Virus record (IMG/VR): IMGVR_UViG_3300032254_000019
Location: 1 to 36,933 of that record
DNA: 36,933 nt
Source: a virus
Taxonomy: Duplodnaviria > Caudoviricetes
Strand: one strand, 5' to 3'
Part shown: positions 1 through 17,620 of the stretch, one piece after another
Layout of the letters: every line of letters begins with the position of its first letter
How positions within the stretch are numbered: the first letter of the stretch is position 1
Translations under genes and position numbers: made by a program
Notes under the pieces: generated by a model
The model's database searches: none
The model's input: only the letters and a program-made list of their open reading frames with translations
What the model was told of the DNA's origin: nothing

Positions 1-71
1 TCTCTATCTATATTGGCAACGGCTGGGCGAATCAGCGCCGGATACGTAACCGGCATTATTTTAAGGAGACG

Positions 72-293
72 ATGATGAAAGACTATGAGTATTTGAGAAA
101 TTATGCTGCATCATTGCATGGGCAGCCTAAGCGCGTTGAGCGACTTGAATTGATTGCTGACCGGCTGAAAAAACTAGAATCAGCATATTGCAAGTTGACC
201 AACTGCGAGTATTACCAAGACGGGCCGAATTTAGCCGGTGTGTACTGCCCGTCTGAATTGCTGTATGAATTTGATGATTTGTTTGACGCATAA
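72..293 (+). CDS. Hypothetical protein (cassette-like ORF)
   Basis: AAGGAG RBS upstream; TAA stop lies in core GCATAAC (288-294). Confidence 0.8.
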   Translation: MMKDYEYLRNYAASLHGQPKRVERLELIADRLKKLESAYCKLTNCEYYQDGPNLAGVYCPSELLYEFDDLFDA

Positions 294-416
294 CGATAAT
301 GGTAACTTGCCGCCGAATTGAAACCGATGAACTTAGGGAAACAAAAATGCCAAACGAAACTACAGAAATAGAAAACCGCGCCGAGGTAGGCGGTCGAGTT
401 GACCCGCTTGTTAGCG
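288..416 (-). repeat. attC-like site 1 (129 bp)
   Basis: Minus strand reads CGCTAAC-AAGCG-GGTCAACT...AGTTACC-ATTATC-GTTATGC: canonical R''-5bp-L''...L'-6bp-R' layout with extra C and CGAC bulge. Confidence 0.9.
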
Positions 417-631
417 GTGGCCGGTTGAGTAGTGCTTATAACGCTGCAAATCTTCAGGTTTGTGCTTGCTACGGTGCTATATCGCATATAGACGCAGCAG
501 AAAAAAGGTTGCGCTCTACACAGCGCGCACCTTTATGGCTTCTCAAACATCTTGACGAGGCGCGCAGAAAAATGAATACGACAATTTTGCCTGAATTGAT
601 ACGCAAACGCGATGAGTTATATTACCGCTAA
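347..631 (+). CDS. Hypothetical cassette protein (start inside attC1; ORF track start 299)
   Basis: ATG at 347 after AGGGAA; reads through the right arm of the site; TAA in core CGCTAAC. Confidence 0.75.
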   Translation: MPNETTEIENRAEVGGRVDPLVSGGRLSSAYNAANLQVCACYGAISHIDAAEKRLRSTQRAPLWLLKHLDEARRKMNTTILPELIRKRDELYYR

Positions 632-706
632 CCAAAAGCTAACAGGAGAGGAACGAAATGAGTGAAACGAATGTAGAGACGAGTCCCGTTGAGCGCCTTG
701 TTATGC
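626..706 (-). repeat. attC-like site 2 (81 bp)
   Basis: + strand CGCTAAC..GCTAACAGG....GAGTCCCGTTGAGC-GCCTT-GTTATGC. Confidence 0.85.
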
Positions 707-915
707 GTGATGGGTATTGCTGCGACTGTAACCACAACCCTGCTGAGACGATTGTTGAGGCAGCAAAAAGGCCGGGACACAAATGCAATGGATGCTGGTT
801 CACAGACCGCAAGCCGAACTGGGCACCGAAGGACGGAAAACAATATTACACAGAAGACGGTACGCTGATGAATTCGGACGGTAGCCGAAGTATTTTTGAC
901 GATGTGGACGCCTAA
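658..915 (+). CDS. Hypothetical Cys-rich cassette protein
   Basis: AGGAGAGG RBS and ATG inside attC2; CCDC and CNGC motifs; TAA in core GCCTAAC. Confidence 0.8.
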   Translation: MSETNVETSPVERLVMRDGYCCDCNHNPAETIVEAAKRPGHKCNGCWFTDRKPNWAPKDGKQYYTEDGTLMNSDGSRSIFDDVDA

Positions 916-1011
916 CGCTAGAACTCAGGCGACCAGAACCGCCTGCGATGAACTTTAAATTTAACTATGAGGCCGATGCGGTTCTGGGTCGGCTGGAGTG
1001 ATTTGTTATGC
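910..1011 (-). repeat. attC-like site 3 (102 bp)
   Basis: GCCTAAC-GCTAGA-ACTCAGGCGACCAGAACCGC ... GCGGTTCTGGGTCGGCTGGAGT-GATTT-GTTATGC; long stem with extra bases on the right arm. Confidence 0.9.
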
Positions 1012-1274
1012 GTATCTCAATTAGAAAAAACACATGCGATAGCGCGATTGGCGAGGCGACAGTCAACGCGCCTGGAGCAAATATAACGATTGATTATGAT
1101 CGCGACGATTTGGCACATGAGCTTGTAAATGCGTACAGAGACCTATTTGATAATACCGATGATTGGGTGGCTCACCTAAGTATGTATATTGATTCTAGCG
1201 AAAAGGCACAGCTCAGGCCGATGCTTTTGGACGAGGACGGAAACAGAAGCATCTTTGACGATGTTGACGCATAA
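1008..1274 (+). CDS. Hypothetical cassette protein
   Basis: ATG is within core GTTATGC; GGAG RBS (995-998) is within the L box; TAA in core GCATAAC. Confidence 0.8.
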   Translation: MRISIRKNTCDSAIGEATVNAPGANITIDYDRDDLAHELVNAYRDLFDNTDDWVAHLSMYIDSSEKAQLRPMLLDEDGNRSIFDDVDA

Positions 1275-1393
1275 CGTCACAAATTACCGGCAATGTGCAA
1301 CTGGGAGCTTGCCGAATTGGGTGAATTTTAACTTAACTGCCAACACAAACAAACACTGCGGCACATTGTCCGAGTAGATTTGTTTTGTTGGGC
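1269..1393 (-). repeat. attC-like site 4 (125 bp)
   Basis: GCATAAC..AATTACCGGCAATGTGC ... GCACATTGTCCGAGTAGATT..GTTGGGC. Confidence 0.85.
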
Positions 1394-1412
1394 GGGCTAC
1401 GGAGTGAATGAA

Positions 1413-1628
1413 GTGAGTAACCTACAAAGAGCTAAAAAATGCGTCACGCATCACCATGCCTGCGATTGCAGAGAATACAAATTTAATGAGATGGAGAGTG
1501 CGCTTAAGGTAATAGCAACATGGGCATCGTGCTCAAACATGGATCGGAAGCCACATGCCAAGCAAATGCTGGATATTGAACTGAAAGCAATGGCTGCTTT
1601 GAATGCCTTAAACGGTATTGACGCCTAA
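1413..1628 (+). CDS. Hypothetical cassette protein with Cys/His cluster (ORF track start 1380)
   Basis: GGAG at 1401 then GTG 1413; CVTHHHACDC motif; TAA in core GCCTAAC. Confidence 0.75.
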   Translation: MSNLQRAKKCVTHHHACDCREYKFNEMESALKVIATWASCSNMDRKPHAKQMLDIELKAMAALNALNGIDA

Positions 1629-1682
1629 CCCCGCGATAAAACGCGGAGCGTAGCGGAGTCGGATTTAATTGCATTGTTAGCC
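1623..1682 (-). repeat. attC-like site 5 (60 bp)
   Basis: GCCTAAC...GGAGCGTAGCGGAGTCGGATTTAATT-GCATT-GTTAGCC; length of a classical 59-base element. Confidence 0.85.
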
Positions 1683-1699
1683 GTATTTTGGAGATGATT

Positions 1700-2008
1700 A
1701 TGGATTACTGGGAAGAAACAATTTCAGAAGCATTTGAAGACGCTGGAATTGCTGCGACAAAAGAACAGATACAAACTGTCGCTAGTTGGGTTGAGGGTGC
1801 TCATGACAACTACGGAATGGCTCACGGATACGATGCAATACCAAGCCACGTAAACAGCGAGATCGAGCAGATTAAAGCACGTCATGCTGCTGAGATTGCA
1901 GAACTACAAAAGCAGGTAAATTGCTACAGAGATAGCGTTGCGTTACGTAGAGGCGTGAAGCGGGAAGATGTTTACCTCGATAGCAATGGCTGCGTTATGT
2001 ACGGCTAA
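1700..2008 (+). CDS. Hypothetical cassette protein with coiled-coil segment (ORF track start 1688)
   Basis: GGAG at 1690, ATG 1700; TAA in core GGCTAAC. Confidence 0.85.
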   Translation: MDYWEETISEAFEDAGIAATKEQIQTVASWVEGAHDNYGMAHGYDAIPSHVNSEIEQIKARHAAEIAELQKQVNCYRDSVALRRGVKREDVYLDSNGCVMYG

Positions 2009-2052
2009 CCCCGGAGCTTAATTGCTCCGTCAATTACAGCGCCTTGTTATGG
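2003..2052 (-). repeat. attC-like site 6 (50 bp, very short)
   Basis: GGCTAAC-CCCGGA-GCTTAATTGC-TCC-GTCAATTACAGC-GCCTT-GTTATGG. Confidence 0.8.
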
Positions 2053-2069
2053 CGCGTGGAGATGAGAAA

Positions 2070-2366
2070 ATGAAGTGTGAAATCTGCGATAAACCAATAG
2101 GAGGCGACCACATTTCTCAGGAGACCAAGGTCCGTTTGTGGGACAAGCTCGCAAAACGGCACACCGAATACCACCGTGGCTGCTGGAATGAATACGCTGC
2201 CGGCATAACATCTGAGCCTGAGCGTTTGTGGCGTGAGCGTCTAGAGCTAGCAAAAAGCAAGATGGCGGACTGCCACAAAGACGACAAAAAACACTGGCGC
2301 GCATGTGTTGCCGAAGCGAAACAGAGAATTAAGGAAATTGGAAATGGGCATACAAGTACATATTGA
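2070..2366 (+). CDS. Hypothetical protein, possible Zn-binding (CxxC...HxxC) (ORF track start 2022)
   Basis: GGAG then ATG 2070, MKCEICDKPI...YHRGC; first of two ORFs in one cassette. Confidence 0.8.
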   Translation: MKCEICDKPIGGDHISQETKVRLWDKLAKRHTEYHRGCWNEYAAGITSEPERLWRERLELAKSKMADCHKDDKKHWRACVAEAKQRIKEIGNGHTSTY

Positions 2367-2571
2367 TGACACCTACAACGTAACGCTAAACGATCTGTTG
2401 GGGCTTGTGCCAAACAGCAAAGCGGCTAAACGATATGCCGAAATAATGGATGATTTAGGACGGTTGCAGAAGATCGTTTCTGGCGCCGCAGAATGGGCTG
2501 ACGCGGAGCACAGGAGCAGGATGGACCCTGAGTGGCTAGTAGATGCTCGTAATTACTTGGGCACGGACTGA
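2344..2571 (+). CDS. Hypothetical protein (second ORF of two-gene cassette)
   Basis: ATG 2344 after AAGGA, overlaps the previous ORF; TGA abuts core GCCATAAC. Confidence 0.7.
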   Translation: MGIQVHIDDTYNVTLNDLLGLVPNSKAAKRYAEIMDDLGRLQKIVSGAAEWADAEHRSRMDPEWLVDARNYLGTD

Positions 2572-2572
2572 G

Positions 2573-2663
2573 CCATAACCCATTTAGCACAGGCGACGAA
2601 CGCAGTGAGGAGTCCAGTGGAATGAACGAAGTGAGTGAAACGAGTGTGCCTGAAGTATTTGAT
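2573..2663 (-). repeat. Degenerate attC-like site 7
   Basis: CCATAAC-CCATTT-AGCACAGG..GAGTCC.. and loop GAACGAAGTGAGTGAAACGA nearly identical to site 2, but no right-hand GTT core. Confidence 0.55.
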
Positions 2664-2735
2664 GATGAAAATGCCGCTAGGGCGAAGAAGAATATTGAAC
2701 GATTGTTTCAACACCGCAGCCAGGAGGCAACATAA
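2622..2735 (+). CDS. Putative 37-aa peptide MNEVSETSVPEVFDDENAARAKKNIERLFQHRSQEAT
   Basis: Manual translation; GAGGAG upstream; TAA falls in core ACATAAC like neighbouring ORFs. Confidence 0.5.
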   Translation: MNEVSETSVPEVFDDENAARAKKNIERLFQHRSQEAT

Positions 2736-2854
2736 CCTTTGGGTAACGCGCCGCATTAAATAAACAAACATTGGAGTAACTGAGATGACGAACGAAACTA
2801 CAAAACCAGAAGCAAGCACAGAGTTAGGCGGTCGCGTTGACTCAGCTGTTAGTG
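2730..2854 (-). repeat. attC-like site 8 (125 bp), paralogous to site 1
   Basis: ACATAAC..GGTAACGCGCCGC ... GCGGTCGCGTTGACT-CAGCT-GTTAGTG. Confidence 0.88.
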
Positions 2855-3042
2855 TGCCTGAACTTTTCAGGGTGCGCTGGTGGATTCAGGACACTATGGA
2901 AAGTGGTCATTGGGAAGTGTCTGGCTTGGTTGGCCTAAAAACTGCCCAGCAGTATGTGCGCTGCGGTTATTACGAGCAGGCACAAATTGTACTAGATGAA
3001 GATGGTTGGCCGATATACGAGGGTGATTGGTGGGCACACTAA
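2785..3042 (+). CDS. Hypothetical cassette protein
   Basis: GGAG and ATG inside attC8; TAA in core CACTAAC. Confidence 0.8.
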   Translation: MTNETTKPEASTELGGRVDSAVSVPELFRVRWWIQDTMESGHWEVSGLVGLKTAQQYVRCGYYEQAQIVLDEDGWPIYEGDWWAH

Positions 3043-3085
3043 CACTGGGCTATACACACCTGATAAGGTAGGGAGCGTAAAAACA

Positions 3086-3391
3086 ATGACTTATAGAGCA
3101 AATAAAAAAGCACGAAAACTGTGGTCATTACAAGCAAACGCCGCAAAAGAAAGAAAAAGACTCGCTGAAAAGGATCAGCATACTGACTTTGTAGATATTG
3201 ATCCTTACATAAAAATCACAATAGAACGCAGGCACACAAAAGAAGTCGCAATATTTGAGTGTCTTGAGGGCAATAGAATTGATAACTACAGCATCTATTG
3301 CAACGATGAGCACTTAGGGATTCATGGCATTACGTTTTTAATGAACCGCATCAGAAAGTCATTACCAAGGTTTAGACGGTTTGATAAATAA
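3086..3391 (+). CDS. Hypothetical basic protein (ORF track start 2996)
   Basis: GGGAG at 3071, ATG 3086; AT-rich; converges on the primase gene. Confidence 0.75.
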   Translation: MTYRANKKARKLWSLQANAAKERKRLAEKDQHTDFVDIDPYIKITIERRHTKEVAIFECLEGNRIDNYSIYCNDEHLGIHGITFLMNRIRKSLPRFRRFDK

Positions 3392-3406
3392 GCCGCTATG
3401 AACTAG

Positions 3407-5827
3407 TCACATAGCAGACTGTGGACCTTTAAGGCCTATCCCGATATAGTACATAGCTCCATCTGCCCGGCCTTTATTAAAACCTCTCTCAGACATTTTA
3501 CGGCCAAACAACGTTTGAGTCATAGGCTTCTCATTACGTTCCTTCTTCCACGATGAATATGTGTGATATAGAACTGACCCTGCAACCTTGACACTTGCTG
3601 GATCAATATCCATGTGCTTGGCAACTATGCAGTTATCCCCCATAAACCGCAGTAATTCGTCTGACTCATCCTGGTATGCGCGGGTAGCTGCTATAACAGA
3701 TTCAGGCTCACAAAGACCTGTTTTTTGCCACTCAAGGCACCCTTTAATTGCCCAGTTCAGAATCCCGGCTGACTCACTCTCAAGGGTTTTAATAAGGTCT
3801 TTATCACGTTTCTCTTCCGGGATTGTTACTTCAAACGGAATTAGTCTAAGTCTGCGCCACATTGCGTGATCTGTACCATAAACGGTCGGTTTGTGATTGG
3901 TTGACATCCATGGTTTGAACTTTGGCGCGTATGAGAAGAATTCACCAAATGGAAACCTGCCTTCTATCTTATCTTCACCTGTTGCAACCTTTATAAGCTC
4001 TTCCCGCAGCCTGCCTGATTCATTGGTCTCTGACATAAACAGTGCCCTGGCAGCTCGGAATCCAGCAAACCTGTAATTATCTTCAGCCGATGGTTTCGCA
4101 CCTATAAACGCTGCTGTGGACGTTGCCATACCCATATCGCCTAGCAACATAGCCATTAGCCGCATAAACGTAGATTTACCATTAGCGCCAGTGCCGTGCA
4201 TAATAAAGAATGCCTGCTCACCTGTTTTACCTGTGAGTGTGTACCCAACAGCGCGTTGAAGAAACTTAACTGTTTCAATGTCTCCGTCCATAATTTCTAA
4301 CATAAATTGTTCCCAACGTGGGCATGTAGCAGTGGCGTCAGCAACGACATGCGAGCGGGTAGTAATAAGATCCTCAGGCTCTGAGTTACGGAGCTTGCCG
4401 GTGCGTAAATCAACCACACCGTTTGAGACACCTAGTAGCCAGTCGTCACCATCAAGATCGCCAGTTGAGATTGAGATACCGGCGCACGACTGTGCGGCCT
4501 CGATGCAGCTCTTGGCACCACCGACAGCCTCGAGTCGCCTAACTGTCTTTAGCTGCGCATTAAGGGCTTTCTCATCCTTTCCGCAGCGGTCTCTTACTTC
4601 AAACTCCATACTCGGGACCATGGCCCATACTCTACGAATCATCTCACCTGATGTATCGAATACCCATCCTCGTGCTGGTGCGGCCTCGCCAGGTTTAGCA
4701 GTATTCCCAAACGTCGATTCCCGTGACCCGGATTCCCAAACAAGCCATTTCTGTTGCTCATGTATGAAGCGCATACAATTAGGAAATGAAGCTATTAACC
4801 GTTCAGCGTTACCTTTATCTGAAGATCTGAATTTCCCTTCAGGTATAACAATATCTTCGAAATCAGCCTTACCACTACTAATATCGTCCGATACAGGTAA
4901 AACTGGCTGGACACTAGTAGAGACCTTATTTACATTACGCGCAGCAATAAACTTAGGAATTGCAGGGAATATTTCTCTCTCAAGCGTCGCGTCATCTATT
5001 GGAATAGCGTTATTAGGGCATCGTTCTACATTTACACGTTTGATAGTGGCACGGATCATATCCTCGTCGAGTCCCTTTCCAACAAGATGGCCAACGTACT
5101 GTACTAGCGGTTGAGTGCGGTTGCCGGGTGCAAGTATATCAGGGAGGATAAAAGTGGAGTCCATGTCAAGGGAGATAGGGAGGCTGTGGGATACCTCACT
5201 TGAAGGGAGCATGGACTCCAAACCTGTAGCGACCTGATTACTATCGCCATTTAAAATCTTACCAGATTGTGCGGCTGATACAAGTGTGCGGCACGATATC
5301 TGAGGATGATTACTAATAGAACATTTTACAAGTGCCGGCGAATTGTATTTATGGTTAATAAATCCAGGGACTCTAAGTACCCGGTCAACATTAGTCATTG
5401 ACGGATCACAGCCAAAACGTTTAGCAAGAAGTGCCTGCGAGAGTTTGAACCCAGTTATTGACTCATCATTAACTCGCCATAGGCAGTGCCATCGACCCGG
5501 ACTTGATGTGGTTAGGATATGAGGTCTTGGCATAGCATCGCGGATAGGGCCAAGCGGCGCACCGTCAGTGTCGACGAACAAATAGCGCACATTAGAGATA
5601 TGTGCTTTACCACGGTCAGCCCCTTCATTGACCTGTACGAATATCCCAGCGCCACGTGCATTAAGATCTGATAACGTCTTACTATGCTGACTGAATGACC
5701 CAGTTAATACCCGTGCAAGTGGATCACGACCACCGGGTTTTTTATCGGAAAACGTTTGGAACACATAAAAATCGCTACTCGATATGGCGCTCAAAAATGA
5801 GTGGCTTAAACTGAGGTCGGTCCCCAT
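3407..5827 (-). CDS. Primase-helicase (RepB-like primase N-terminus, D5_N and P4-family SF3 helicase)
   Basis: LFVDTDG and SSPGRWHCLW primase motifs; NGVVDLRTG; Walker A GTGANGKST; TNHKP, WRRLRLIPF. Confidence 0.93.
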   Translation of the reverse strand: MGTDLSLSHSFLSAISSSDFYVFQTFSDKKPGGRDPLARVLTGSFSQHSKTLSDLNARGAGIFVQVNEGADRGKAHISNVRYLFVDTDGAPLGPIRDAMPRPHILTTSSPGRWHCLWRVNDESITGFKLSQALLAKRFGCDPSMTNVDRVLRVPGFINHKYNSPALVKCSISNHPQISCRTLVSAAQSGKILNGDSNQVATGLESMLPSSEVSHSLPISLDMDSTFILPDILAPGNRTQPLVQYVGHLVGKGLDEDMIRATIKRVNVERCPNNAIPIDDATLEREIFPAIPKFIAARNVNKVSTSVQPVLPVSDDISSGKADFEDIVIPEGKFRSSDKGNAERLIASFPNCMRFIHEQQKWLVWESGSRESTFGNTAKPGEAAPARGWVFDTSGEMIRRVWAMVPSMEFEVRDRCGKDEKALNAQLKTVRRLEAVGGAKSCIEAAQSCAGISISTGDLDGDDWLLGVSNGVVDLRTGKLRNSEPEDLITTRSHVVADATATCPRWEQFMLEIMDGDIETVKFLQRAVGYTLTGKTGEQAFFIMHGTGANGKSTFMRLMAMLLGDMGMATSTAAFIGAKPSAEDNYRFAGFRAARALFMSETNESGRLREELIKVATGEDKIEGRFPFGEFFSYAPKFKPWMSTNHKPTVYGTDHAMWRRLRLIPFEVTIPEEKRDKDLIKTLESESAGILNWAIKGCLEWQKTGLCEPESVIAATRAYQDESDELLRFMGDNCIVAKHMDIDPASVKVAGSVLYHTYSSWKKERNEKPMTQTLFGRKMSERGFNKGRADGAMYYIGIGLKGPQSAM

Positions 5828-5893
5828 ATTGTCTCCCAGACTTTAGCGGTTACTTTAACATTAAAAGTAATTGAAGTTATGTGATTATAGTTA

Positions 5894-6076
5894 TTAGATG
5901 ATTACGTCTTTGAATAGATCTGCTTTTGATCCATTAAGCAGGCGGTAGCGGTATAACTCCGGGATGGGCTTTGACTCATCCCACAAGTAAACTGCCTGGC
6001 GTGTGCATCCAATATCGTCAGCAAGCGCAGCTCTGCTACCGTTATAGTAAACTTCAAGTAATTCTTTAAGTGACAT
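5894..6076 (-). CDS. Cro-like HTH DNA-binding protein
   Basis: GSRAALADDIGCTRQAVYLW...IPE Cro-type HTH. Confidence 0.8.
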   Translation of the reverse strand: MSLKELLEVYYNGSRAALADDIGCTRQAVYLWDESKPIPELYRYRLLNGSKADLFKDVII

Positions 6077-6108
6077 GATTGTAACCAAAATGTTTATACA
6101 GTGGACTC

Positions 6109-6172
6109 ACCTTACACTAGATCAATTTTAAATGTCAACAGTGTTGACAAGCTCGATTTTAATGTATAGGAT
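6109..6172. promoter_or_regulatory. Divergent sigma70-like promoters with back-to-back -35 boxes
   Basis: Palindrome TGTCAACA-G-TGTTGACA (6133-6149); + strand TTGACA-17bp-TAGGAT; minus strand TTGACA-18bp-TAAGGT; lies between divergent operons. Confidence 0.7.
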
Positions 6173-6206
6173 TGAATTTAATTACACCAAGTGCAGGGAG
6201 ACAATT

Positions 6207-6428
6207 ATGAATAAGGGAACATACTGGAAGAAGATGGCATTTCACAACCAAGGTGAGCCTATATGCGAAACACCTTATTTTGATGATGTGATCCAGTTAC
6301 TTGCAGATGAGCTTGAAACAGGCAGAGATCATAGTGTGCGCGTACTAGAGCTGCTGCGAATTGGTGCGTCAGAGTACATTGAACGCTGTATGAAGTTTGA
6401 AGGCATAGACCAGGACATATCAGAATAA
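6207..6428 (+). CDS. Hypothetical protein (ORF track start 6132)
   Basis: GGGAG RBS, ATG 6207; TAATG overlap with the polymerase gene. Confidence 0.75.
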   Translation: MNKGTYWKKMAFHNQGEPICETPYFDDVIQLLADELETGRDHSVRVLELLRIGASEYIERCMKFEGIDQDISE

Positions 6429-7534
6429 TGATTGGACTTGATCTTGAAACTGCCCCATGCGAAGGGCAGCCTCAGCCTTATGCACTTCAACCGTGGAGAG
6501 CTAGGGAGGGTACGGCGCATATAACGTCGTGTGCGATTGCTAAGTCATCGGGACAGGCTAAGACAACACCAGGCAGGTACAGCGACCTTAAACAGCTACT
6601 GATAGAGCTTGACGGTAAGTATGTAGCAACATGGAATGGATTATTTGACGTTGCGTGGCTACTTGCCTATGGGTTGGATGAGCATGTCAAAAAGATAAAG
6701 TGGGTTGATGCGATGTTGCTATGGAAATGGGTAGAAAATTCACAGTCCAAGGAGCATGCACCTGCGTGGTCGTTGATGGACGGCGCTAAAAGGTGGCTAA
6801 AAGACTGGCCCCATCTGGATAGGTTTAAGGATATGAAGTCAAAGGAAGTAGCCGCCGGGGAAGACGACAAGTATTGGGAGATGAGAGGCAAACTTGATGC
6901 GCTTGTGACTGTCAAGATCGCTGAGATCCTTCAACATAAATTAACTGACCAGCAGCGTAAATCAGTGTTAATCGAAGCGGCGTGCATTATACCGGCAGCA
7001 AAAGCGTGGATAGGCGGGATAAACATTGATACACATAAATGTAAGGCAATAGCGCCAATAATTACTGACGAAATGAGATCTATAGAGGTTAAGTTGGGCG
7101 TATGCGACAGTACATCAGACAAAGACCAGTGGAAGCCATCAACGCTATTATCATCACCTAAGAAGTTAAGCGTATTATTATATACTACTTGGGGTCTGCC
7201 ATGCTCAGTATTTAGTGATAAAACTGGCGCGCCGAGTTCAAATAAAACCGCACTGACATACCTTGCCGATACCGATCCAAGAGTACTCGATATTCTAAGG
7301 TGGCGCGAGCTGAACACTCAGTATACCAAATTTGTCAAAGGGATCATTGCGACATCAGAGTATATCAATGACGATATAGCATACCCGTCACCGAAAATAT
7401 TCTCGACATATACAGGCAGGTTCACGTATGCAAGTAGGAGTGGAAAGAAAGGCGAGAACTACAAAGCTAAGGTAGGTATACCCATCCACCAATTCCCTCG
7501 GAATAAAACCTTGAGAAAGTTAATTGGAAGTTGA
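6428..7534 (+). CDS. Family A DNA polymerase, N-terminal part (3'-5' exonuclease and thumb)
   Basis: ExoI DLET, ExoII WNGLFD, SSPKKL..LLY...GLP, TGAPSS, TYTGRFT, HQFPR. Confidence 0.9.
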   Translation: MIGLDLETAPCEGQPQPYALQPWRAREGTAHITSCAIAKSSGQAKTTPGRYSDLKQLLIELDGKYVATWNGLFDVAWLLAYGLDEHVKKIKWVDAMLLWKWVENSQSKEHAPAWSLMDGAKRWLKDWPHLDRFKDMKSKEVAAGEDDKYWEMRGKLDALVTVKIAEILQHKLTDQQRKSVLIEAACIIPAAKAWIGGINIDTHKCKAIAPIITDEMRSIEVKLGVCDSTSDKDQWKPSTLLSSPKKLSVLLYTTWGLPCSVFSDKTGAPSSNKTALTYLADTDPRVLDILRWRELNTQYTKFVKGIIATSEYINDDIAYPSPKIFSTYTGRFTYASRSGKKGENYKAKVGIPIHQFPRNKTLRKLIGS

Positions 7535-7730
7535 CGAGCGAACCATGACTAAATTAGCAGAAATTGAATGCAGGATCTTACGGAAAACATACTGCGCATA
7601 CCTTATAGACAATGGGAAATTCAAAATGTGGTTATCAAAGTCACACATAATTGACGAGACAAACTACCTTAACGGCGCTGTACTCACGATCCCTATGTGG
7701 TTAGCACTGAATGAGGGACTGGTGAAGTGA
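7524..7730 (+). CDS. Small hypothetical protein between polymerase halves (alternative ATG 7545)
   Basis: AYLIDNG..MWLSKSHI...LTIPMWLA..EGL resembles a recurrent small phage beta-rich protein. Confidence 0.7.
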   Translation: MEVDERTMTKLAEIECRILRKTYCAYLIDNGKFKMWLSKSHIIDETNYLNGAVLTIPMWLALNEGLVK

Positions 7731-7879
7731 ACGTAATGACGGCAATATGCCTTGCAGGGTCGTTTTTGAGCCTGGTAGGCGCACTACAGGCATACAATAC
7801 TGGACTAAACTATTATCCGTGGTTAATAGCATCTATATGGGCGGGTATAGCAGCATTAGGAAGTACCAATGGGAGATAA
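7727..7879 (+). CDS. Putative 50-aa two-helix membrane protein
   Basis: Manual translation MNVMTAICLAGSFLSLVGALQAYNTGLNYYPWLIASIWAGIAALGSTNGR; GTGA overlap with the upstream stop. Confidence 0.6.
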   Translation: MNVMTAICLAGSFLSLVGALQAYNTGLNYYPWLIASIWAGIAALGSTNGR

Positions 7880-8690
7880 GTTACTTGTTGAGTTCGATGC
7901 CGCGGGGCAGGAAATGCGGATCATGGCCGATTATTCACAAGATCCGGCATTACTTAAAATCTTTAATTCTAAATCCCCCTTTGATGATGTCCATTCCTAT
8001 ACTGGATCAAAGATTGCCGGAATGACGTTTGAAAACTTCCTGGAGGCTAAGGCAGCAGGGAATAAAAGAGTAGTTGGAGAGCACGGGCTGAGACACATGG
8101 GGAAATTTTGCAATTTGTCCGGCCTCTATAGAGTAGGTGTCAAGAAGCAAAGAATAAATGCTCGAGTTCAGTATGGCATTGACAAGGATTATATGACGAT
8201 TAGTAGCTGGCAAGACACGTTCCACCGTGCCTATCCAGGTATCAAACGATACTGGGCTGCTGCGATAGCTACCGCTAAAGATCGTGGGTATGCTGAGACT
8301 CGTGCCGGACGCAGATTCTATATTACTGATTGGAATATCCCGGATAGGGCCTGGGGTTGTGAAAGCTCTGCCATTAATTTCCCGATTCAAGGTACAGGTG
8401 CGGATATGAAGGAGCTGGCTATCGCAGTAATATCTAAAAAGTTCCCTAAATTTGAATTCGCATGGGATCTACATGATGGCGAATTTGGATATATCGAATC
8501 GAAACATATCAATTCTAATATGCAGATAATATACGACATTAGAGAGACACTTGACAATCTACCGTACAAAGAAGCATGGGGATGGGAGCCAACTGTGCCC
8601 ATAACATGGGATGCCGCAGTAGGTAAAACGTGGGGTGATATGAAAGAAGTAAACTGGGATGAAAAAGGATCACTTATAACAACATTATAA
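7869..8690 (+). CDS. Family A DNA polymerase, C-terminal catalytic part
   Basis: Motif A LVEFDAAGQEMR, motif B RHMGKFCNLSGLY, AINFPIQGTGAD, motif C DLHDG; AGGA RBS. Confidence 0.92.
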   Translation: MGDKLLVEFDAAGQEMRIMADYSQDPALLKIFNSKSPFDDVHSYTGSKIAGMTFENFLEAKAAGNKRVVGEHGLRHMGKFCNLSGLYRVGVKKQRINARVQYGIDKDYMTISSWQDTFHRAYPGIKRYWAAAIATAKDRGYAETRAGRRFYITDWNIPDRAWGCESSAINFPIQGTGADMKELAIAVISKKFPKFEFAWDLHDGEFGYIESKHINSNMQIIYDIRETLDNLPYKEAWGWEPTVPITWDAAVGKTWGDMKEVNWDEKGSLITTL

Positions 8691-8701
8691 AGGATAACGT
8701 A

Positions 8702-9394
8702 ATGGCTAAATCTATGGCATGGTCTTTTAGCAGATTAAACGATTTTGAAAACTGCCCTAAGATGTTCCACTCTAAATATATATTGAAAGAGTGGCCTAAG
8801 GAGGATAACTCACCTCATTTAATTAAAGGCCGCAGAGTACACGATAAAATGGAGGTGGCGTTAAAGAAGATGCAAATCACCCTTGGCGGTGAGTATGATG
8901 ACGAGATATTCCCAATGGTGCCGGTTTTACAGAAAATAGTTGCCCATGCACAGAACAACAACGGTGAGATTTATACAGAACTTCAGAAGGCGCTAACAGA
9001 TAAGTTGTCTGCGTGTAGTTGGTTCGATAAGCAGACATGGGTAAGGGCCATCTTCGATGTTCTGATTATGTATAAAGATTCGGCGCTAGTAATCGACTGG
9101 AAAACAGGTAAACCAAGTGAAGATAAAGGACAGCTCGCGCTATTCGCAGCGGTTGTCATGGCCTTGTATCCAAAGATCCAATCAGTAACGACATCGTATG
9201 TATTCATAGATCATAACAAGACAGTTTCGAAGCGGTTCACTCGAGACCAGTATGAAGATCTATGGCATGAGTTCGGGGATAGGGCTGAACTGATTCAAAT
9301 CGCTGTAGAGTCAGGTGAGTGGAGGGCAACTCCGAACCGGCGGAATTGCAAATGGTGCAAAGTACGAGAATGTGAATATAAAGGAGGTTACTAA
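8702..9394 (+). CDS. PD-(D/E)XK (Cas4/RecB-like) nuclease
   Basis: WSFSRL..FENCP, IDWKTGK, QLALF, C-terminal CKWC...C. Confidence 0.88.
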   Translation: MAKSMAWSFSRLNDFENCPKMFHSKYILKEWPKEDNSPHLIKGRRVHDKMEVALKKMQITLGGEYDDEIFPMVPVLQKIVAHAQNNNGEIYTELQKALTDKLSACSWFDKQTWVRAIFDVLIMYKDSALVIDWKTGKPSEDKGQLALFAAVVMALYPKIQSVTTSYVFIDHNKTVSKRFTRDQYEDLWHEFGDRAELIQIAVESGEWRATPNRRNCKWCKVRECEYKGGY

Positions 9395-9918
9395 TGGATA
9401 TCATGATTGACATTGAAACATTATCTACAGATAAAACGGCTACGATTGTAAGTATAGGAGCCGTAGTGTTCGACCCCAAAGCTGGCGGTGATGAGTTTAG
9501 CAACGAGGACAAATTCTATACTGTGTGCGATGTAAACCAGCAACGGTTAGTAGATGTAAGTACAGTGACGTGGTGGATGTCGCAATCTGACGCAGCCAGG
9601 GAAGTATTTACGGATCGAAATGCGGTACATATAACGGCAGCGTTGCAGAGTCTTAAATCGTTTATAGAAGAAGTTTGTCCTGATGGTATATGGGCAAACT
9701 CGCCGAGTTTTGACCTTAGAATCCTTGAAGATGCGTTTAGACAATTTGACATATCAATCCCTTGGATGTTCTGGCAGGAACGTGATGTTAGAACACTAAA
9801 GAACGTAATAAATAAGGACAGGATGCCTGAGTTTGAAGGTACGGCGCATAACGCACTTGCAGACGCAGCGCACCAGGTAAAGCAGGTACAGTACATTCAC
9901 AGCTTAATTGGTGATTGA
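9394..9918 (+). CDS. DEDDh 3'-5' exonuclease (exodeoxyribonuclease VIII N-terminal-like)
   Basis: MIDIETL, IGAV.FD, WANSPSFD, RDVRT, HNALADA. Confidence 0.9.
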   Translation: MDIMIDIETLSTDKTATIVSIGAVVFDPKAGGDEFSNEDKFYTVCDVNQQRLVDVSTVTWWMSQSDAAREVFTDRNAVHITAALQSLKSFIEEVCPDGIWANSPSFDLRILEDAFRQFDISIPWMFWQERDVRTLKNVINKDRMPEFEGTAHNALADAAHQVKQVQYIHSLIGD

Positions 9919-10257
9919 ATGACTACAGAAAATAGAACCTATAAGCTAAGAATACCAAATTGTGAGCATGCGCTTTATTTCACAGTCGCAGGGACACCTG
10001 TGCCGACGATGCTATTTGTGAACTGTAAAGATATGAGATCGTTCGAGTGGTTAACTGCTCTAATGACCGCCTATTCAAGACAACTCAGAGCTGGCGTACT
10101 TGTATCGGACATCATTGGTGATATGTCTGAGACCTTTGACCCTCATGGCGGGTATATGATCCCTGACGGGTCAGGTCGAAAGGCGCACAGCTTGATACAT
10201 CACCTAGGACTTATACTTGAACAGCATATAGATGAGATACGATATGACTCAGCCTGA
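9919..10257 (+). CDS. NrdJb/TSCPD-domain-like protein
   Basis: ALYFTV..LFVNCKDM..FEWLTAL..SRQLR.G...FDPHGGY..SLI..LG.ILE.H resembles the C-terminal subunit of split class II RNR. Confidence 0.65.
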   Translation: MTTENRTYKLRIPNCEHALYFTVAGTPVPTMLFVNCKDMRSFEWLTALMTAYSRQLRAGVLVSDIIGDMSETFDPHGGYMIPDGSGRKAHSLIHHLGLILEQHIDEIRYDSA

Positions 10258-10582
10258 GAAGAAAGTAAAGAACTCGATTAAGAAATCAGTTCTAGATAGA
10301 TTCCCTGGTACATGGATGTACATGCCAGTGCAGACTGGTTATGGTCAACATGGAATTCCTGATTTTGTATGTTGCGTGCCGGTGGTAATAAGCCAAGAGA
10401 TGGTTGGGAAGCGGATCGGTGCGTTCGTAGGTATCGAAGCCAAGACAGAGACAGGTAAATTATCAAAAATGCAGTCATACCAGATTAACGCTATAGCTGA
10501 CGCTAGTGGCGTCGCGGTCGTCATCAAAGGCGAGGTGGAAATCGACAAGGTAATTAGCTTAATAGAGGAGTCTTTAAGTTGA
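10244..10582 (+). CDS. VRR-NUC domain nuclease
   Basis: GYGQHGIPDF...FVGIEAK...LSKMQ...ASG. Confidence 0.85.
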   Translation: MTQPEKKVKNSIKKSVLDRFPGTWMYMPVQTGYGQHGIPDFVCCVPVVISQEMVGKRIGAFVGIEAKTETGKLSKMQSYQINAIADASGVAVVIKGEVEIDKVISLIEESLS

Positions 10583-12123
10583 TAATATCGCAGGCACACA
10601 AAGCAGTGATGGTAAATAACCATATAATGCCTGCTATTAATCTGACACGATTTGATCGGACAAAGCAGGTAACATATAAAGGCGAAGATTTTACAGTGCT
10701 ACCCGATAGTCTAGACACATTCGAGATACTATCAAAGGAGAATGTCACATACGCTGGGCCGATAACACGATATTACTCTTGGCCGGGGCAGTTTACACCT
10801 TTCGATCATCAGATAGAGACATCGGATTTCCTGTGCAGGCATCGCAGGGCGTTTGTATTTAACAGTATAGGGACCGGGAAAAGTTTATCCGCATTATGGG
10901 CGGCTGATTACTTGCGTCGGCAGGGGAAGGTTAGGAAGACGCTTATAGTCGCGACATTATCAACACTTTGGCGTGTATGGGCAGATGAAATATATAAGAA
11001 CTTCCCAGGTATTACTTTCGCTGTACTCCACGGTTCAAGGCAAAAACGATTAAGTATGCTGTCCAAAGACAAGGACTTCTACATTATCAACCATGACGGT
11101 ATGAAGGTACTTCAAGCAGACTTAGATGCGCGTGACGATATCGACTTGGTTATTCTTGACGAAGGAGCACAGTTCAGGAACGCCAAGACCGATAAGTATA
11201 AGTCACTTGATGTAGTAGCAGGTGTAAAGTCTAATCGACGCCTGTGGTGGCTTACTGGAAGTCCAATGCCTAATGCCCCAACTGATATATGGGCACAGGC
11301 AAGGATGATAAACCCTGATCTAGTACCTAGGTACTTCTCACGGTTCAGGGATCAGGTAATGACACAGCGAAACCAGTTCTTATGGGTTCCGAAACCAAAC
11401 TGGGAGCAACAGATATACGCGATGCTGAAACCGTCAATCCGTTACACACGCGATCAGTGCCTTGATCTACCGCCGTGCATTACAGAAGTCCGCGAAGTCG
11501 AAATGTCGAAAGACCAGGAGAAAGCATATAAATCAATGTGTGCCGAATTCATCGCAGAAATGAAAGGCGGTACGGTTATCGCTGTCAATGAGGGAGTTCG
11601 TAGAAATAAATTAATTCAAATTGCTACCGGGTATGTATATGACCAAAACGGAGTGACCCACGACTTGAATTGTAGCGCTAAATATAAAGCACTTATTGAA
11701 GCAGTTGAGGAGTCAGGAAACAAGGCAATTATTTTCACACCGTATAGACACTCTGCTGAGTCAATAGCAAAGCAATTAAAATCAAAATATACAGTCGGGA
11801 TGGTACATGGCGGAGTCTCTACACCGATTAGAAGTAAGATATTCTCAGATTTCCAGGATGGCGATTTACAGCTTATAGTCGCGCATCCTGGGTGCATGGC
11901 CCACGGGTTAACACTGACCGCCAGTAGTACAATCATCTGGTGGGGACCAGTAGACTCTTATGAAATATATGAGCAGGCAATCGGACGGATTACTAGACCG
12001 GGCCAGAAACTAAAGCAGACGATAGTACACCTGGTATGTTCAGACATAGAAAAGAAGGTATATAAACGACTCGGTAAAAAAGAAAGTATGCAGGGATTAC
12101 TTTTGGAACTATTAAATACTTGA
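10579..12123 (+). CDS. SNF2-family (SF2) helicase
   Basis: GTGKS, ILDEG, LTGSP, HGLTLTAS, QAIGRITRPGQ. Confidence 0.92.
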   Translation: MIISQAHKAVMVNNHIMPAINLTRFDRTKQVTYKGEDFTVLPDSLDTFEILSKENVTYAGPITRYYSWPGQFTPFDHQIETSDFLCRHRRAFVFNSIGTGKSLSALWAADYLRRQGKVRKTLIVATLSTLWRVWADEIYKNFPGITFAVLHGSRQKRLSMLSKDKDFYIINHDGMKVLQADLDARDDIDLVILDEGAQFRNAKTDKYKSLDVVAGVKSNRRLWWLTGSPMPNAPTDIWAQARMINPDLVPRYFSRFRDQVMTQRNQFLWVPKPNWEQQIYAMLKPSIRYTRDQCLDLPPCITEVREVEMSKDQEKAYKSMCAEFIAEMKGGTVIAVNEGVRRNKLIQIATGYVYDQNGVTHDLNCSAKYKALIEAVEESGNKAIIFTPYRHSAESIAKQLKSKYTVGMVHGGVSTPIRSKIFSDFQDGDLQLIVAHPGCMAHGLTLTASSTIIWWGPVDSYEIYEQAIGRITRPGQKLKQTIVHLVCSDIEKKVYKRLGKKESMQGLLLELLNT

Positions 12124-12147
12124 CATTGTTTCAACATACTGTATAGT
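12120..12147 (+). promoter_or_regulatory. Putative sigma70-like promoter
   Basis: TTGACA-16bp-TATAGT in the gap before the next gene; shares TGTATAG with the 6144 promoter. Confidence 0.5.
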
Positions 12148-12184
12148 TAGCTTGCCAAACAAAATTCAACATGGGAGGTTGGAT

Positions 12185-12571
12185 ATGGACAACGTAGAGC
12201 GGGCAATTAGTGCCTATATAAAAATTAGAGACGACTTGGATGCCAAAAGAAAGGCATTTAAAGAAGTCGAGAGTGCAGCGAAAGCGAAGTTAGACGAGAT
12301 CTCAGGCTACATCGGGAAGCATATCGGCAGTGCTGAGTCTGTAAAGACAGCTCACGGCACGGCATTCAGAGCAAAAAAAGATTTTACGGCGGTTGAAGAT
12401 TGGGAGTCGGCAATCAAATTTATTGTCGATACCGACAATGTACAAATGCTGAATAAATCAGTTAGCAAAGCAGCGGTAAAAGAATACATGGCGGAGCATT
12501 CAGGAGCTACACCTCCAGGTATTAAATATTCATCATTAATTGAAATCCAGGTTAGGAGACCTACAAAATGA
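12185..12571 (+). CDS. Conserved-type phage replication-module protein (ORF track start 12152)
   Basis: GGAGG RBS; N-terminal coiled coil, SVKTAHGT, V.DW, PPGI, IQVRR. Confidence 0.8.
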   Translation: MDNVERAISAYIKIRDDLDAKRKAFKEVESAAKAKLDEISGYIGKHIGSAESVKTAHGTAFRAKKDFTAVEDWESAIKFIVDTDNVQMLNKSVSKAAVKEYMAEHSGATPPGIKYSSLIEIQVRRPTK

Positions 12572-13584
12572 GCAACCAAATAATTATCCCAGAAGGCACC
12601 CAATTACCGGCGCATCTTCAGAATAGAGTCACAGACAATTCGAGCCTAGCTGTAGTAGATAGCTTTCTACCACGTGTCGTTGCTAAAGATGGACACTTCA
12701 TAATCCGTAAGGACGGCGAAGATAAACATCTACCTTTAGGCCAGGGACTCGGCGTCGTAATCATGGCAGCCTCACCATTAGGTAAGGCGGTAGCCAAGCA
12801 ATTCTATGCGAGTGCTTACTCCCCGGATAGTGACGCCGAACCGGATTGCAGATCAGCAAACGGCGTAGTGCCAGATCCTGGGTGTCTGAACAAACAGTCA
12901 GATACATGTGCAGCATGCCCGAAAAATGCGTGGGGATCGGGTGTTGATGCCCAAGGTATGCCGACGAAGGGTAAGGCGTGTTCAGATCGAAAAGAGCTGA
13001 TTATAGTCCCGAATACTGTAATCGAAGGCGACATCTATATGCTATCTGTGTCACCAAAAAGTTTGAAGCCATTAAGTATTTATGGCCGTGAGCTGGACAA
13101 GCATAATATTCCTGTTAGTGGTATAACCACAACGATTGGCTTCGACCCAGCCGATCCAAAGGTACTTAAATTTGAATTTGGTGGGTTCCTTGATGCAGCA
13201 CAGGATGCGATAATTCAGAAGCGTATCCAATCAGACGAAGTCCAGTCGCACGTAGTTGGATCTGATACAGTTCAGCCGACAGTTCAAGCAGTGTCTGAGC
13301 CGTCTGTGGTGGCCCAACCTGTACAGACCGAGTCTGATGTACCAGACGACCCCTTTAACGCGCCTCAGAAAGAGCTGCATGAATCAGATGTTGACGCTAA
13401 CGGTGATGAGTGGGACGAACAGATCCACGCGGCTACTAAATCGAAAACAAAATCAGGTCTGTGGACGAAACGTAGGTCGACTCAGCAATCCGAAGCTGTG
13501 CAGGCTGCGGTAACGGAGCCGGATCAAATTAGTGACTCAGATGCCGATGAACTTAATAGTATACTCGGAGAGTGGGGCGCGTAG
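12568..13584 (+). CDS. Putative ssDNA-binding/recombination protein
   Basis: PDCRS.NG..P, CAACPKNAWGS, GKAC; long flexible acidic C-terminus ending in W; position in the replication module. Confidence 0.6.
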   Translation: MSNQIIIPEGTQLPAHLQNRVTDNSSLAVVDSFLPRVVAKDGHFIIRKDGEDKHLPLGQGLGVVIMAASPLGKAVAKQFYASAYSPDSDAEPDCRSANGVVPDPGCLNKQSDTCAACPKNAWGSGVDAQGMPTKGKACSDRKELIIVPNTVIEGDIYMLSVSPKSLKPLSIYGRELDKHNIPVSGITTTIGFDPADPKVLKFEFGGFLDAAQDAIIQKRIQSDEVQSHVVGSDTVQPTVQAVSEPSVVAQPVQTESDVPDDPFNAPQKELHESDVDANGDEWDEQIHAATKSKTKSGLWTKRRSTQQSEAVQAAVTEPDQISDSDADELNSILGEWGA

Positions 13585-13599
13585 CCACGGTAGAATATT

Positions 13600-13848
13600 A
13601 TGGATACAGACTATATATTAACTTTAAAGGTGGAGGCTGCCAGGAAGGCAGTCTCTACCGCTGGCGGGCAGACGGCGTTAGCTAGAAAACTAAGTGATCT
13701 GCTTAACGAAAGAATCTCAAATGTACGTGTAGCCAAATGGCTGGTCAACGGAATTCCACCTAGGATGGTGCTTCCAATTTCTGAGATAACGGGTATTAAC
13801 CCAAATGAACTCGACCCGAAACTTTACCCGAAACACATTTTGAGATAA
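13600..13848 (+). CDS. Cro/YdaS-like HTH protein
   Basis: AGGQTALARKL...VAKW...IPP...ITGI...ELDPKLY. Confidence 0.82.
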   Translation: MDTDYILTLKVEAARKAVSTAGGQTALARKLSDLLNERISNVRVAKWLVNGIPPRMVLPISEITGINPNELDPKLYPKHILR

Positions 13849-13861
13849 CGCAGGCGATGAT

Positions 13862-14053
13862 ATGAGTGAAAGTAACCAACAGACCTTAGTTAACAACGCA
13901 AAAATAATACTGGACACTACGCGGATCTTTTGGAGCAGCGAGGCTAGTAATGATTGCGAATGTGATATTTCATATTGTGTCGATACGGGTATGGAGTGTA
14001 GAGAATGTAATATAGCTCCAGTAAGTATAGCGACGCAGGGGAGCATATTCTGA
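13862..14053 (+). CDS. Small Cys-rich hypothetical protein
   Basis: CECD..C....CREC; last gene of the + operon. Confidence 0.55.
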   Translation: MSESNQQTLVNNAKIILDTTRIFWSSEASNDCECDISYCVDTGMECRECNIAPVSIATQGSIF

Positions 14054-15747: not shown

Positions 15748-16118
15748 TAGCAGTGTCTCCCACTTGGGTCAAATTTATCAAGTAACCGTTTACAAATCGA
15801 ACGTGACCACCTACCTCTAAAGTCTGTACGATTCTTATTTCTAATCATACGTGATGAGAGAGTGAACTCTTTTGGAAGCTGTAGGAATGGAATCGTGGCA
15901 ACCATATTCAATGCCACGTCCAGTATGACGCCGATAATTAGTATCTGGGCTGCGAACGGTCTGACCCAACCTTCTAGATTCTCTTTATTGCGTTTGAGGT
16001 TCATTACAGCAAGGTAAAATATCCATACTGCGAGAGCGAGAAGGTATGTAAAACCAAGAAACTTTAGGCCAATGACTGCCATAGTGTATAGTTCACTTAA
16101 ATTATCCATTATTTCCAC
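15747..16118 (-). CDS. Membrane protein (two hydrophobic segments)
   Basis: LDVALN...TLSSRM...IC..LLDKFDPSGRHC. Confidence 0.75.
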   Translation of the reverse strand: MEIMDNLSELYTMAVIGLKFLGFTYLLALAVWIFYLAVMNLKRNKENLEGWVRPFAAQILIIGVILDVALNMVATIPFLQLPKEFTLSSRMIRNKNRTDFRGRWSRSICKRLLDKFDPSGRHC

Positions 16119-17620
16119 CTCGCGTCTACAATCATTAATCCCGCTGGGCCACTTCTAGCTAGTGGTGTGTTGCCAACATTGATATAGTTATCATGAATGA
16201 TTTCGTTAACACTTTCCCCATTACCATTATCACACAATTCCATCAAGTCAATAGTGGTTTGTGACATTGGGTCAAGTAAAATTGGCGTAAAATCCGGACT
16301 TGCTTCAAACGGGTGAGGGATTAAATCCATGTCCGCATTTTTCATTAAAGGAGTAAGTTCGATTTCGTCCTCAACCGCTGAGCGTTTTGCTTCGAGTACA
16401 GCTTTTTTGTAAGCTACCTTTTGCGCCATTGATGAATTGGACTTGATAGGTGCAGGCATAGAGAAATTATTATGTTTGATATATTGCTTGCCATCATTAG
16501 TATGACGATCAGCAGTAACTTTTGTTGGACCATTGTAAATCCATGGAGGGGTATCAGCAGAATATACACTAACGATATTGCCCTGTGAGTCTACATTTGC
16601 AAAGATGAAAAATGGAACTTCACCATCACCAAGATCGTATGGAGGTGACGCTGTTACATATCGCTGTTGTGCGGAGGCAATAGCATTATTATTCGCATAA
16701 ATGTTAATGCTCGCACTATAACTATCGCCATAAGTACTGGCAACGTAATTTTGATTAGGATCACTACTGCCCCAATAAGCAGTTGCAATGGGTAAATTCG
16801 ACCTTAATCTAGGGTAGAATCCATGTGCTCCTCCGGGCAAAACCATAATCTGACTATATGGGGTCGTGACAGATACTTCGCCAACTGATGTTTTCAACTC
16901 ATTCTGACCTACTCTACCAACTAAATTTGAATTTGTTATAATCTCACTGCCGTATAAAGATCCGACTGACGTAGTGTTATTTAACTCAAGTGGATTTGCA
17001 CCATCCCAAGCTCCACTATCATCTCTGTCTGTTAAGACGGAGAATGTGTCTGTGTCGGCATATAGCCAAAAATCATCAGCACCGGCAGTTGTATCACTAA
17101 GTTTTATACCCGGATTGGTTCCTTCAACAGTAACCGTGTTAGTGAACGTCTTCGCGCCAGTGATAGTCTGACTCCCGTCTCGCAGCACAGCTCCCCATGG
17201 CGAGAACCGCACAGGTACGATAATGGTGTTGTCTATCACCACTGTTGATGTTTCTAACTGAAAGTAGGCCAGCGGCACACGGCCACTTGTTACGGATGGA
17301 ATACTTGGAGATGCGTTTTCTGTCCCAGTAATGACGTAAGCAGTACCTGTAAGTGGATCAAGCTCTACAAGGTCAATACGAGGATTGACACCTGGCGCTG
17401 TCAAAGGTCCAAGCGTCTGAGCAGCCTGCTCGATGATCGTAGCACCTGTAAACTGCGCCCCACTATCGACCACAACATTCATGTCAGGTGTGGCTGATTC
17501 GTGAACTGAAAACGCTGCCGCCAACTCACTTACGGCCCTGGTCATGGCATCAATATTCGCCTTATACTGAGATCCTGACTGAGTTGTGTAGTCAGGCTGT
17601 AATGGGGTAGCAGTACTCAT
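16109..17620 (-). CDS. Tail fiber/receptor-binding protein
   Basis: NPRIDLV shoulder-type motif, QTITGAKTF fiber repeat; follows the tail tip gene. Confidence 0.75.
   Translation of the reverse strand: MSTATPLQPDYTTQSGSQYKANIDAMTRAVSELAAAFSVHESATPDMNVVVDSGAQFTGATIIEQAAQTLGPLTAPGVNPRIDLVELDPLTGTAYVITGTENASPSIPSVTSGRVPLAYFQLETSTVVIDNTIIVPVRFSPWGAVLRDGSQTITGAKTFTNTVTVEGTNPGIKLSDTTAGADDFWLYADTDTFSVLTDRDDSGAWDGANPLELNNTTSVGSLYGSEIITNSNLVGRVGQNELKTSVGEVSVTTPYSQIMVLPGGAHGFYPRLRSNLPIATAYWGSSDPNQNYVASTYGDSYSASINIYANNNAIASAQQRYVTASPPYDLGDGEVPFFIFANVDSQGNIVSVYSADTPPWIYNGPTKVTADRHTNDGKQYIKHNNFSMPAPIKSNSSMAQKVAYKKAVLEAKRSAVEDEIELTPLMKNADMDLIPHPFEASPDFTPILLDPMSQTTIDLMELCDNGNGESVNEIIHDNYINVGNTPLARSGPAGLMIVDARWK

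Follow-up and report, generated by a model that had tools for sequence, protein, structure and literature searches.

Research on integrons has treated them as a means by which bacteria store genes for resistance and for defence against phages. The strand recombined at an attC site is the bottom strand, which carries an unpaired G at position 16 and an unpaired T at 23/24 (PMC5027507). Clusters of attC sites lacking an integron integrase (CALINs) have also been reported from virulent phages, where 17 were found in 10,705 genomes and IntI1 recombined five of six tested phage sites with a preference for the bottom strand, both PH101 sites and the TJE1 site being among those recombined (Qi et al., 2023, PMC9892861). 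Here we describe a locus of this kind in a 36,933-nt contig of a tailed phage (IMG/VR record IMGVR_UViG_3300032254_000019, positions 1 to 36,933), the whole of which we call the window and in which short genes alternate with seven attC-type hairpins between positions 288 and 3042. Our analysis points to an inverted cassette array that ends at a fixed attI-like site followed by a conserved small gene (together, the docking platform), and that is probably shuffled by a host IntI acting in trans. For the narrower statement that the array consists of mobile inverted cassettes, our confidence is high.

Like the clusters of Qi et al., this array places attC sites between small phage genes, with no integrase found in the contig. 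The first-pass annotation of the window had regarded CALINs as known mainly from bacterial replicons; a phage array is indeed present, but attC clusters in virulent phages had already been published (PMC9892861), so this aspect is not new. That text, in the part accessible to us, makes no mention of genes antisense to attC polarity, of a docking platform, or of shuffling among relatives, and a search of the openly available literature turned up neither a title nor an abstract dealing with reversed phage arrays or with this platform. Within the searched literature, then, we found no precedent for the reversed polarity and the docking platform. With bacterial integrons (PMC5027507), the locus shares R and L boxes, 5–6 nt spacers, the G16/T23 geometry, a variable loop, the array itself and a fixed simple end site with a gene beyond it. 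Unlike in bacterial integrons, the phage genes are antisense to the top strand, each hairpin precedes its own gene and often codes for its start, and no intI stands beside the end site, where there is instead a gene for a 101-amino-acid (aa) protein without recombinase match; phage transcription also runs towards the docking site rather than away from it, and the usual arrangement of promoterless top-strand genes read from Pc at attI is not found, all intervals being inverted. The end site resembles attI in its fixed lone core, 5-nt spacer and degenerate L-like box, which recur in 18 loci, but had no host attI match in the bacterial genomes searched. In attG secondary-site insertion, IntI is reported to place cassettes into short GWT sequences that lie away from integrons (Loot et al., bioRxiv 10.1101/2022.09.11.507474), and a TAAC read on the opposite strand is a sequence of this type; conservation of the phage end site over 46 nt in unrelated phages argues that it is more than a chance GWT.

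The seven imperfect palindromes and seven core pairs listed in the first-pass annotation were all present at the positions given there, with the mismatches it had recorded, and its degenerate palindrome at 2573 proved to have a left core and no right arm and to be kin of the 626 hairpin. All seven sites have R boxes with AAC/GTT, L boxes, 5–6 nt spacers and an imperfect hairpin, and they lie inside 2.6 kb, a CALIN being defined by at least two neighbouring sites. Beyond GTT/AAC, the cores around one gene block paired at 6.0 of 8 positions, compared with 3.6 for other pairings (permutation p = 0.0014). An attC scanner applied to positions 1–3100 returned eight sites at a score of at least 13.4, namely the seven and an intragenic match at 2373 that we took as chance, compared with a mean of 0.12 and a maximum of one site in 100 dinucleotide-preserving resamples; the other 33.8 kb of the window gave eight matches, none reaching 15.5, although the scanner's false positives can score about 16. 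For a covariance model we used the bottom strands of 37 independent attC sites that our own caller had classed beforehand as canonical; their sources were bacterial loci and an integron in a Shewanella prophage. This model matched all seven hairpins at their exact ends (scores in Table 1), and its best other match in the window had 10.9 bits (E 1.8), with nothing else under E 1. The sites are thus attC-type, as had been proposed. Folding, suggested as a further check, was less useful, since whole-site minimum free energy is uninformative for long-loop sites; attC anatomy is supported by the tests above. Rfam gave no match for these sites.

Extrahelical bases (G16 and T23 in sites 288 and 2730, G16 alone in 626 and 910) sit on the right arm of the + strand, and therefore the + (coding) strand is the bottom strand. 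Consistent with this, the top strand scored higher on the minus strand in 7/7 sites of the window and the covariance model matched all seven on the + strand, while two control integrons pointed with their arrays (Vibrio prophage MK672802, 11/11 sites; Shewanella prophage MZ568829, 8/8). Canonical polarity, in which crossover would take place at the + strand G|TT that follows a hairpin, was implicit in the first-pass annotation; the breakpoints, the covariance model and the extrahelical bases all locate it in the left core instead, at TAA|C. With the bottom strand on the coding strand, the hairpin belongs to the downstream gene and crossover occurs at the stop codon of the upstream gene (TAA|C), and in eight of ten genes the predicted crossover AAC at the left end of the hairpin is indeed the stop codon TAA plus C. 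R-box pairing rises from 4–6/7 in the array to 6–7/7 once units are circularised at the predicted crossover. In related phage DNA, the unit gained, lost or moved starts at the C of one TAA|C, takes in the hairpin and its gene, and ends with the following TAA. Several hairpins contain the ribosome site and start codon of their own gene and code for its first residues; those at 288, 626 and 2730 have a ribosome site rich in purines and an in-frame ATG for the gene downstream.

To place this polarity among other loci, we scanned viral and bacterial collections with one attC-like pattern; all counts from these scans are among the matches listed. Paired sites occurred in 14 of 123 viral loci (16 intervals inverted, 4 canonical, 6 undecided, 2 mixed) and in 21 of 133 bacterial loci (30 canonical, 5 inverted, 2 undecided, 1 mixed). 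An orientation caller based on the longest open reading frame (ORF) erred on controls and was replaced by another. Covariance matches in 79 of the viral loci gave 41 of 53 sites inverted, 11 canonical and 1 undecided, so inversion is the majority state in viruses, not a rule. Two cassette proteins of the window had matches among these loci, in viral loci only (0/133 bacterial). Reanalysis of arrays reported in PMC9892861 showed PH101 and MW202573 to be inverted and TJE1 canonical. With two published phage arrays of the inverted type, the strand of an attC site needs to be taken into account whenever such sites are predicted in a phage genome. Three viral arrays of canonical polarity (L037, L081, L091) carry phage-like genes, and two of them end their genes in the same few residues.

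Mobility was examined in contigs from seven sequencing runs of five studies aligned to positions 1–4200 (X3–X5 come from one study, and X1 is possibly the window's own sample); runs with shares under 0.2 were used only after contigs had been placed on the window. The claim that the phage's accessory genes are mobile cassettes held up, in that related phage DNA varies exactly at a core. Loci L005 and L006 have flanks 98.7% and 100% identical and differ by a 368-bp cassette found only in L006, with crossover in the left core; the hairpin after the shared gene in L005 equals the second hairpin in L006, which indicates that hairpins travel with the downstream gene. Of 29 loose ends of matches listed (from a total of 41), 16 lay within 4 nt of a TAAC core, zones that make up 2.4% of positions, 5 at a GTT core and 8 elsewhere. 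The 360-bp cassette 3 recurred with 0–1 differences in X3, X4, X5 and X6, which represent two studies, its matches running from 912/913 (924 in X6) to 1270–1277 and leading into at least four different downstream hairpins. Duplicated cassettes were seen within single arrays (L006, 1066–1334 and 2307–2568; PH101 [L336], 26529 and 27931), the upstream hairpin type being the same and the downstream hairpins different.

The array terminates at a lone core (3040–3043), from which 46 nt lead to the next ATG, a stretch that aligns without gaps across loci. Loci L323 and L326 share with window positions 1–14000 only 3039–3392, upstream of which they carry wholly different inverted arrays, and in the L323 phage (G009, 97% complete) the terminal site occurs twice, its other copy closing a further inverted array. 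A profile of ORF 3086–3391 retrieved 16 viral loci (one being L323; three share the last cassette), which with the window and L326 make 18 platform loci. The distance from core to ATG was 46 nt in 17 of the 18 and 56 nt in one, compared with 2 of 239 other ORFs. Inverted sites stood upstream in 16 platform loci, the other two having under 200 nt of upstream DNA, and the covariance model found 45 matches in 12 of the 15 loci searched, all inverted and all upstream. A further locus, L329, showed the terminal pattern without array or gene and was treated as chance. Two genes of the L323 array resemble DNA methyltransferases, and one cassette adjoining its docking site has its gene in canonical orientation and is possibly a captured host cassette (2042–2695, 3882–4505, 4605–5069). 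One platform phage (L347, G1163; 79.8 kb) is classed as a provirus, whose flanks might reveal a host.

Taken together, these observations suggest how the array could work. A host IntI would act on the folded coding strand, cutting it at AAC, and circular cassettes would enter mainly at the 3040 site, the promoter-distal end of the transcript; each insertion would keep the upstream stop codon intact, so that the array would remain an expressed operon. Once captured by a host attI, phage cassettes would lie antisense to the Pc promoter there, and host (defence) cassettes taken up by the phage would lie antisense to its operon, which would keep the two pools apart. The 101-aa protein would most likely assist the platform, by binding the site or regulating recombination, rather than act as the catalytic recombinase. 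With its defined end site and a protein family of 176 clusters, the platform gives experimenters specific objects to test. Phages appear to use the chemistry of integrons with its polarity flipped and, if this is true, the flip would let them use the host enzyme while host defence cassettes stay silent. The bottom strands of PH101 lie on the coding strand by its record annotation, so its array is inverted, and since IntI1 recombines both PH101 sites, hairpins of inverted phage arrays are real IntI substrates. LexA commonly controls intI (PMC8876359), which offers one route by which the host enzyme may be used in trans. The sole site that failed in the published IntI1 assay (P12002L [L010], about 30016) has its stated bottom strand on the coding strand and no covariance match. 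A more elaborate version, which we find possible but doubtful, is a parasitic mirror image of an integron, in which the dock and the approximately 100-aa protein would switch on, recruit or redirect host IntI for a phage-only pool, and ordinary phage genes bracketed by two such insertions would become new cassettes.

Several observations weigh against an array shuffled by host IntI. At the level of the sites, extrahelical bases are atypical in 1269 (17/21/25), 1623 (irregular) and 2003 (C16), and site 2003, at 50 nt, falls under the range of 57–141 nt given in PMC5027507, within which the other six lie; the TJE1 site recombined by IntI1 (PMC9892861) has this same scanner length of 50 nt. The terminal site has a degenerate L box that may represent what remains of an attC left arm, and inverted arrays also occur without the platform (L005, L276), these ending differently, which makes the platform one of several array ends. 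Five of 19 viral loci, among the matches listed, are canonical. Within the seven runs, represented by contigs only, there was no skipping joint, excision joint or circle, and the five loose ends at GTT cores all came from hairpin-only matches, as did three of the TAAC ones. Seven homologs of cassette 2 keep the protein body while their hairpin-encoded N-termini differ. Neither a host nor a host IntI was found in bacterial genome searches with the terminal-site pattern and the 101-aa profile; the pattern was absent from 401 genomes of one proteobacterial class and 401 of another phylum, with no host attI match. Finally, about 39% of the genome, including the DNA left of position 1, is missing from the window, and an identical protein is encoded on another contig, of 53 kb.

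The rival that survives best keeps the inverted cassettes and makes the recombinase phage-encoded, whether IntI or Xer-like, in the missing part of the genome, a co-infecting phage or a prophage. The window is an estimated 61% complete, and integrase-like ORFs lie downstream of six platform loci; none fits the integron-integrase model and three are weak Xer-type matches. Family searches can moreover miss divergent recombinases, which weakens the case for a host enzyme: two contigs with integrase-like ORFs yielded nothing in the TIGR02249 search. In line with the first-pass remark that no integrase is in view, a six-frame PF00589 search of the window was empty, none of 52 ORFs scanned was a recombinase, and no integron integrase lay to the right of the array. 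Against this rival, complete or nearly complete relatives also lack matches: PF00589 found nothing in G004 (100% complete), G006 (95%) or G009, and TIGR02249 nothing in five platform phages, two of them with terminal repeats. The downstream integrase-like ORFs come after excisionase-like ORFs and are absent from most platform loci. We therefore consider a phage-encoded recombinase improbable.

Less probable again is the idea that the hairpins are gene-boundary modules (translation starts, RNA structures) swapped by homologous or illegitimate recombination, any integrase being historical or irrelevant. Hairpin families do recur with unrelated genes: window hairpin types precede other genes in L276, and the site-5 type does so in three runs. 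The L005/L006 crossover also falls inside a 15-nt shared stretch, and cassettes 2 and 3 have similar 3′ ends. Against this, many breaks share only the 4–7 nt core, R boxes pair better circularised than in the array, and the integrase-specific bulges are conserved. The N-terminal differences among cassette-2 homologs and the ends at GTT cores do indicate that hairpins are also exchanged between genes, and over longer times hairpins may be re-paired with genes by top-strand or homologous recombination.

We see a slimmer chance still that the 101-aa protein is itself a recombinase, or the catalytic part of one, of a new kind that uses attC-like hairpins. It occupies the position of intI at a near-fixed distance from the core across 18/18 loci, is basic (isoelectric point 9.8) and has invariant Arg, Asp, Asn, Tyr and Cys residues; against this, it is one third the size of IntI and matches no recombinase family, arrays and copies of the site occur without its gene, and the hairpins retain the G16/T23 geometry that IntI reads. 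Its family comprised 176 clusters in the length range searched, without annotation, and we found no sequence match in Pfam, PHROG, NCBIfam, PDB or ESM Atlas; tblastn with one homolog gave no match in phage records. The AlphaFold model (predicted local distance difference test score 75, predicted template modelling score 0.42) has a helix, four strands and a helix, for which Foldseek returned nothing at E ≤ 0.001 (best Z 4.2). Over 400 + 351 + 351 genomes, the family profile yielded one distant homolog (E 5e-4) with a degenerate site and no attC in 2.1 kb, as well as a spurious match antisense to recA; scanning viral sequences with that homolog produced nothing usable. Modelled in complex with a stand-in bacterial IntI, the protein scored 0.00, which is no evidence either way. 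A canonical array captured from a bacterial integron, with crossover at the + strand G|TT, is scarcely credible: core pairing alone fits either polarity and canonical phage arrays exist (TJE1 and the five viral loci above), but 7/7 sites are inverted, breakpoints fall at the left core, and the cargo is phage-type, with its two matched proteins viral only.

Table 1. Cassettes, attC sites and flanking features of the array (positions in the window).
Feature	Position	Strand	Details
73-aa gene	72..293	+	left of first hairpin; stop TAA inside first crossover core
attC site 1	288..416	top strand −	G16, T23; ribosome site and ATG (347) of downstream gene in loop; 30.6 bits
Cassette 1	294..631	+	hairpin and 94-aa ORF 347–631, no family; R box 7/7 when circularised
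attC site 2	626..706	top strand −	G16; ribosome site and ATG (658) in loop; 22.4 bits
Cassette 2	632..915	+	85-aa Cys-rich ORF 658–915
attC site 3	910..1011	top strand −	G16; ATG (1008) in right core; 40.4 bits
Cassette 3	916..1274	+	88-aa ORF 1008–1274
attC site 4	1269..1393	top strand −	extrahelical 17, 21, 25 (one position further out than usual); 16.8 bits, E 0.08
Cassette 4	1275..1628	+	ORF ends 1628; putative start GTG 1413
attC site 5	1623..1682	top strand −	irregular L box; 25.6 bits
Cassette 5	1629..2008	+	102-aa ORF 1700–2008, phage family phrog_12330
attC site 6	2003..2052	top strand −	50 nt, extrahelical C16; 26.0 bits
Cassette 6	2009..2578	+	two genes (2070–2366, 2344–2571) in one unit; R box 7/7 when circularised
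Relic cassette 7	2573..2735	+	left core, site-2-type hairpin remnant, 37-aa ORF 2622–2735; no covariance match
attC site 8	2730..2854	top strand −	G16, T23; ribosome site and ATG (2785) in loop; kin of site 1; 23.6 bits
Cassette 8	2736..3042	+	85-aa ORF 2785–3042; adjoins docking site; core pairing 11/11
attI-like terminal site	3040..3085	−	lone core, 5-nt spacer, L-box-like element, second conserved box
101-aa basic protein gene	3086..3391	+	conserved, no known family; position and direction of intI

The 73-aa gene at the left edge may be either a fixed flank or the last gene of an earlier cassette, the contig ending at position 1; contigs of three runs follow the window up to 294–297 and then run into other hairpins. 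Among the ten ORFs of 72–3042 there were no Pfam matches and one PHROG match, that of cassette 5, whose phrog_12330 homologs occur both within inverted arrays and without attC. Three findings bear on the origin of cassettes: members of one phage gene family may or may not be flanked by attC, some cassettes hold two genes, and hairpins are re-paired with different genes. The proteins of cassettes 2 and 3 are unrelated, yet their C-termini share a motif of about 20 residues (840–916 and 1200–1275) that is also found at the end of many prophage proteins lacking attC. A promoter scan gave nothing above chance.

The window is a linear viral contig without terminal repeats, its completeness being an estimate. 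The ORFs to the right of position 3400 match primase, family-A polymerase, nucleases, helicase, lysis, tail, capsid, portal and terminase functions (52 ORFs scanned). No relatives of the array were found among 50,697 phage records, nor a close relative of the backbone in phage records, where the matches gave no host inference. The contig gave no match to a CI-like repressor or integrase, and small Cro/YdaS-like regulators are encoded at 13600–13848 and 5894–6088. The family-A DNA polymerase (6428–8690) is split into ORFs at 6428–7534 and about 7869–8690, with small ORFs at 7524–7730 (phrog_8389) and 7747–about 7875 between the halves. The final ORF (36203–36933, minus strand, truncated by the contig end) consists of tandem repeats of about 57 nt, the likely cause of the assembly break there. 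Beyond the platform, G009 shares with the window only a tail gene (16102–17170 in the window, 23222–24344 in G009), 84–87% identical between these otherwise unrelated phages with a docking platform in common, which hints at a common host.

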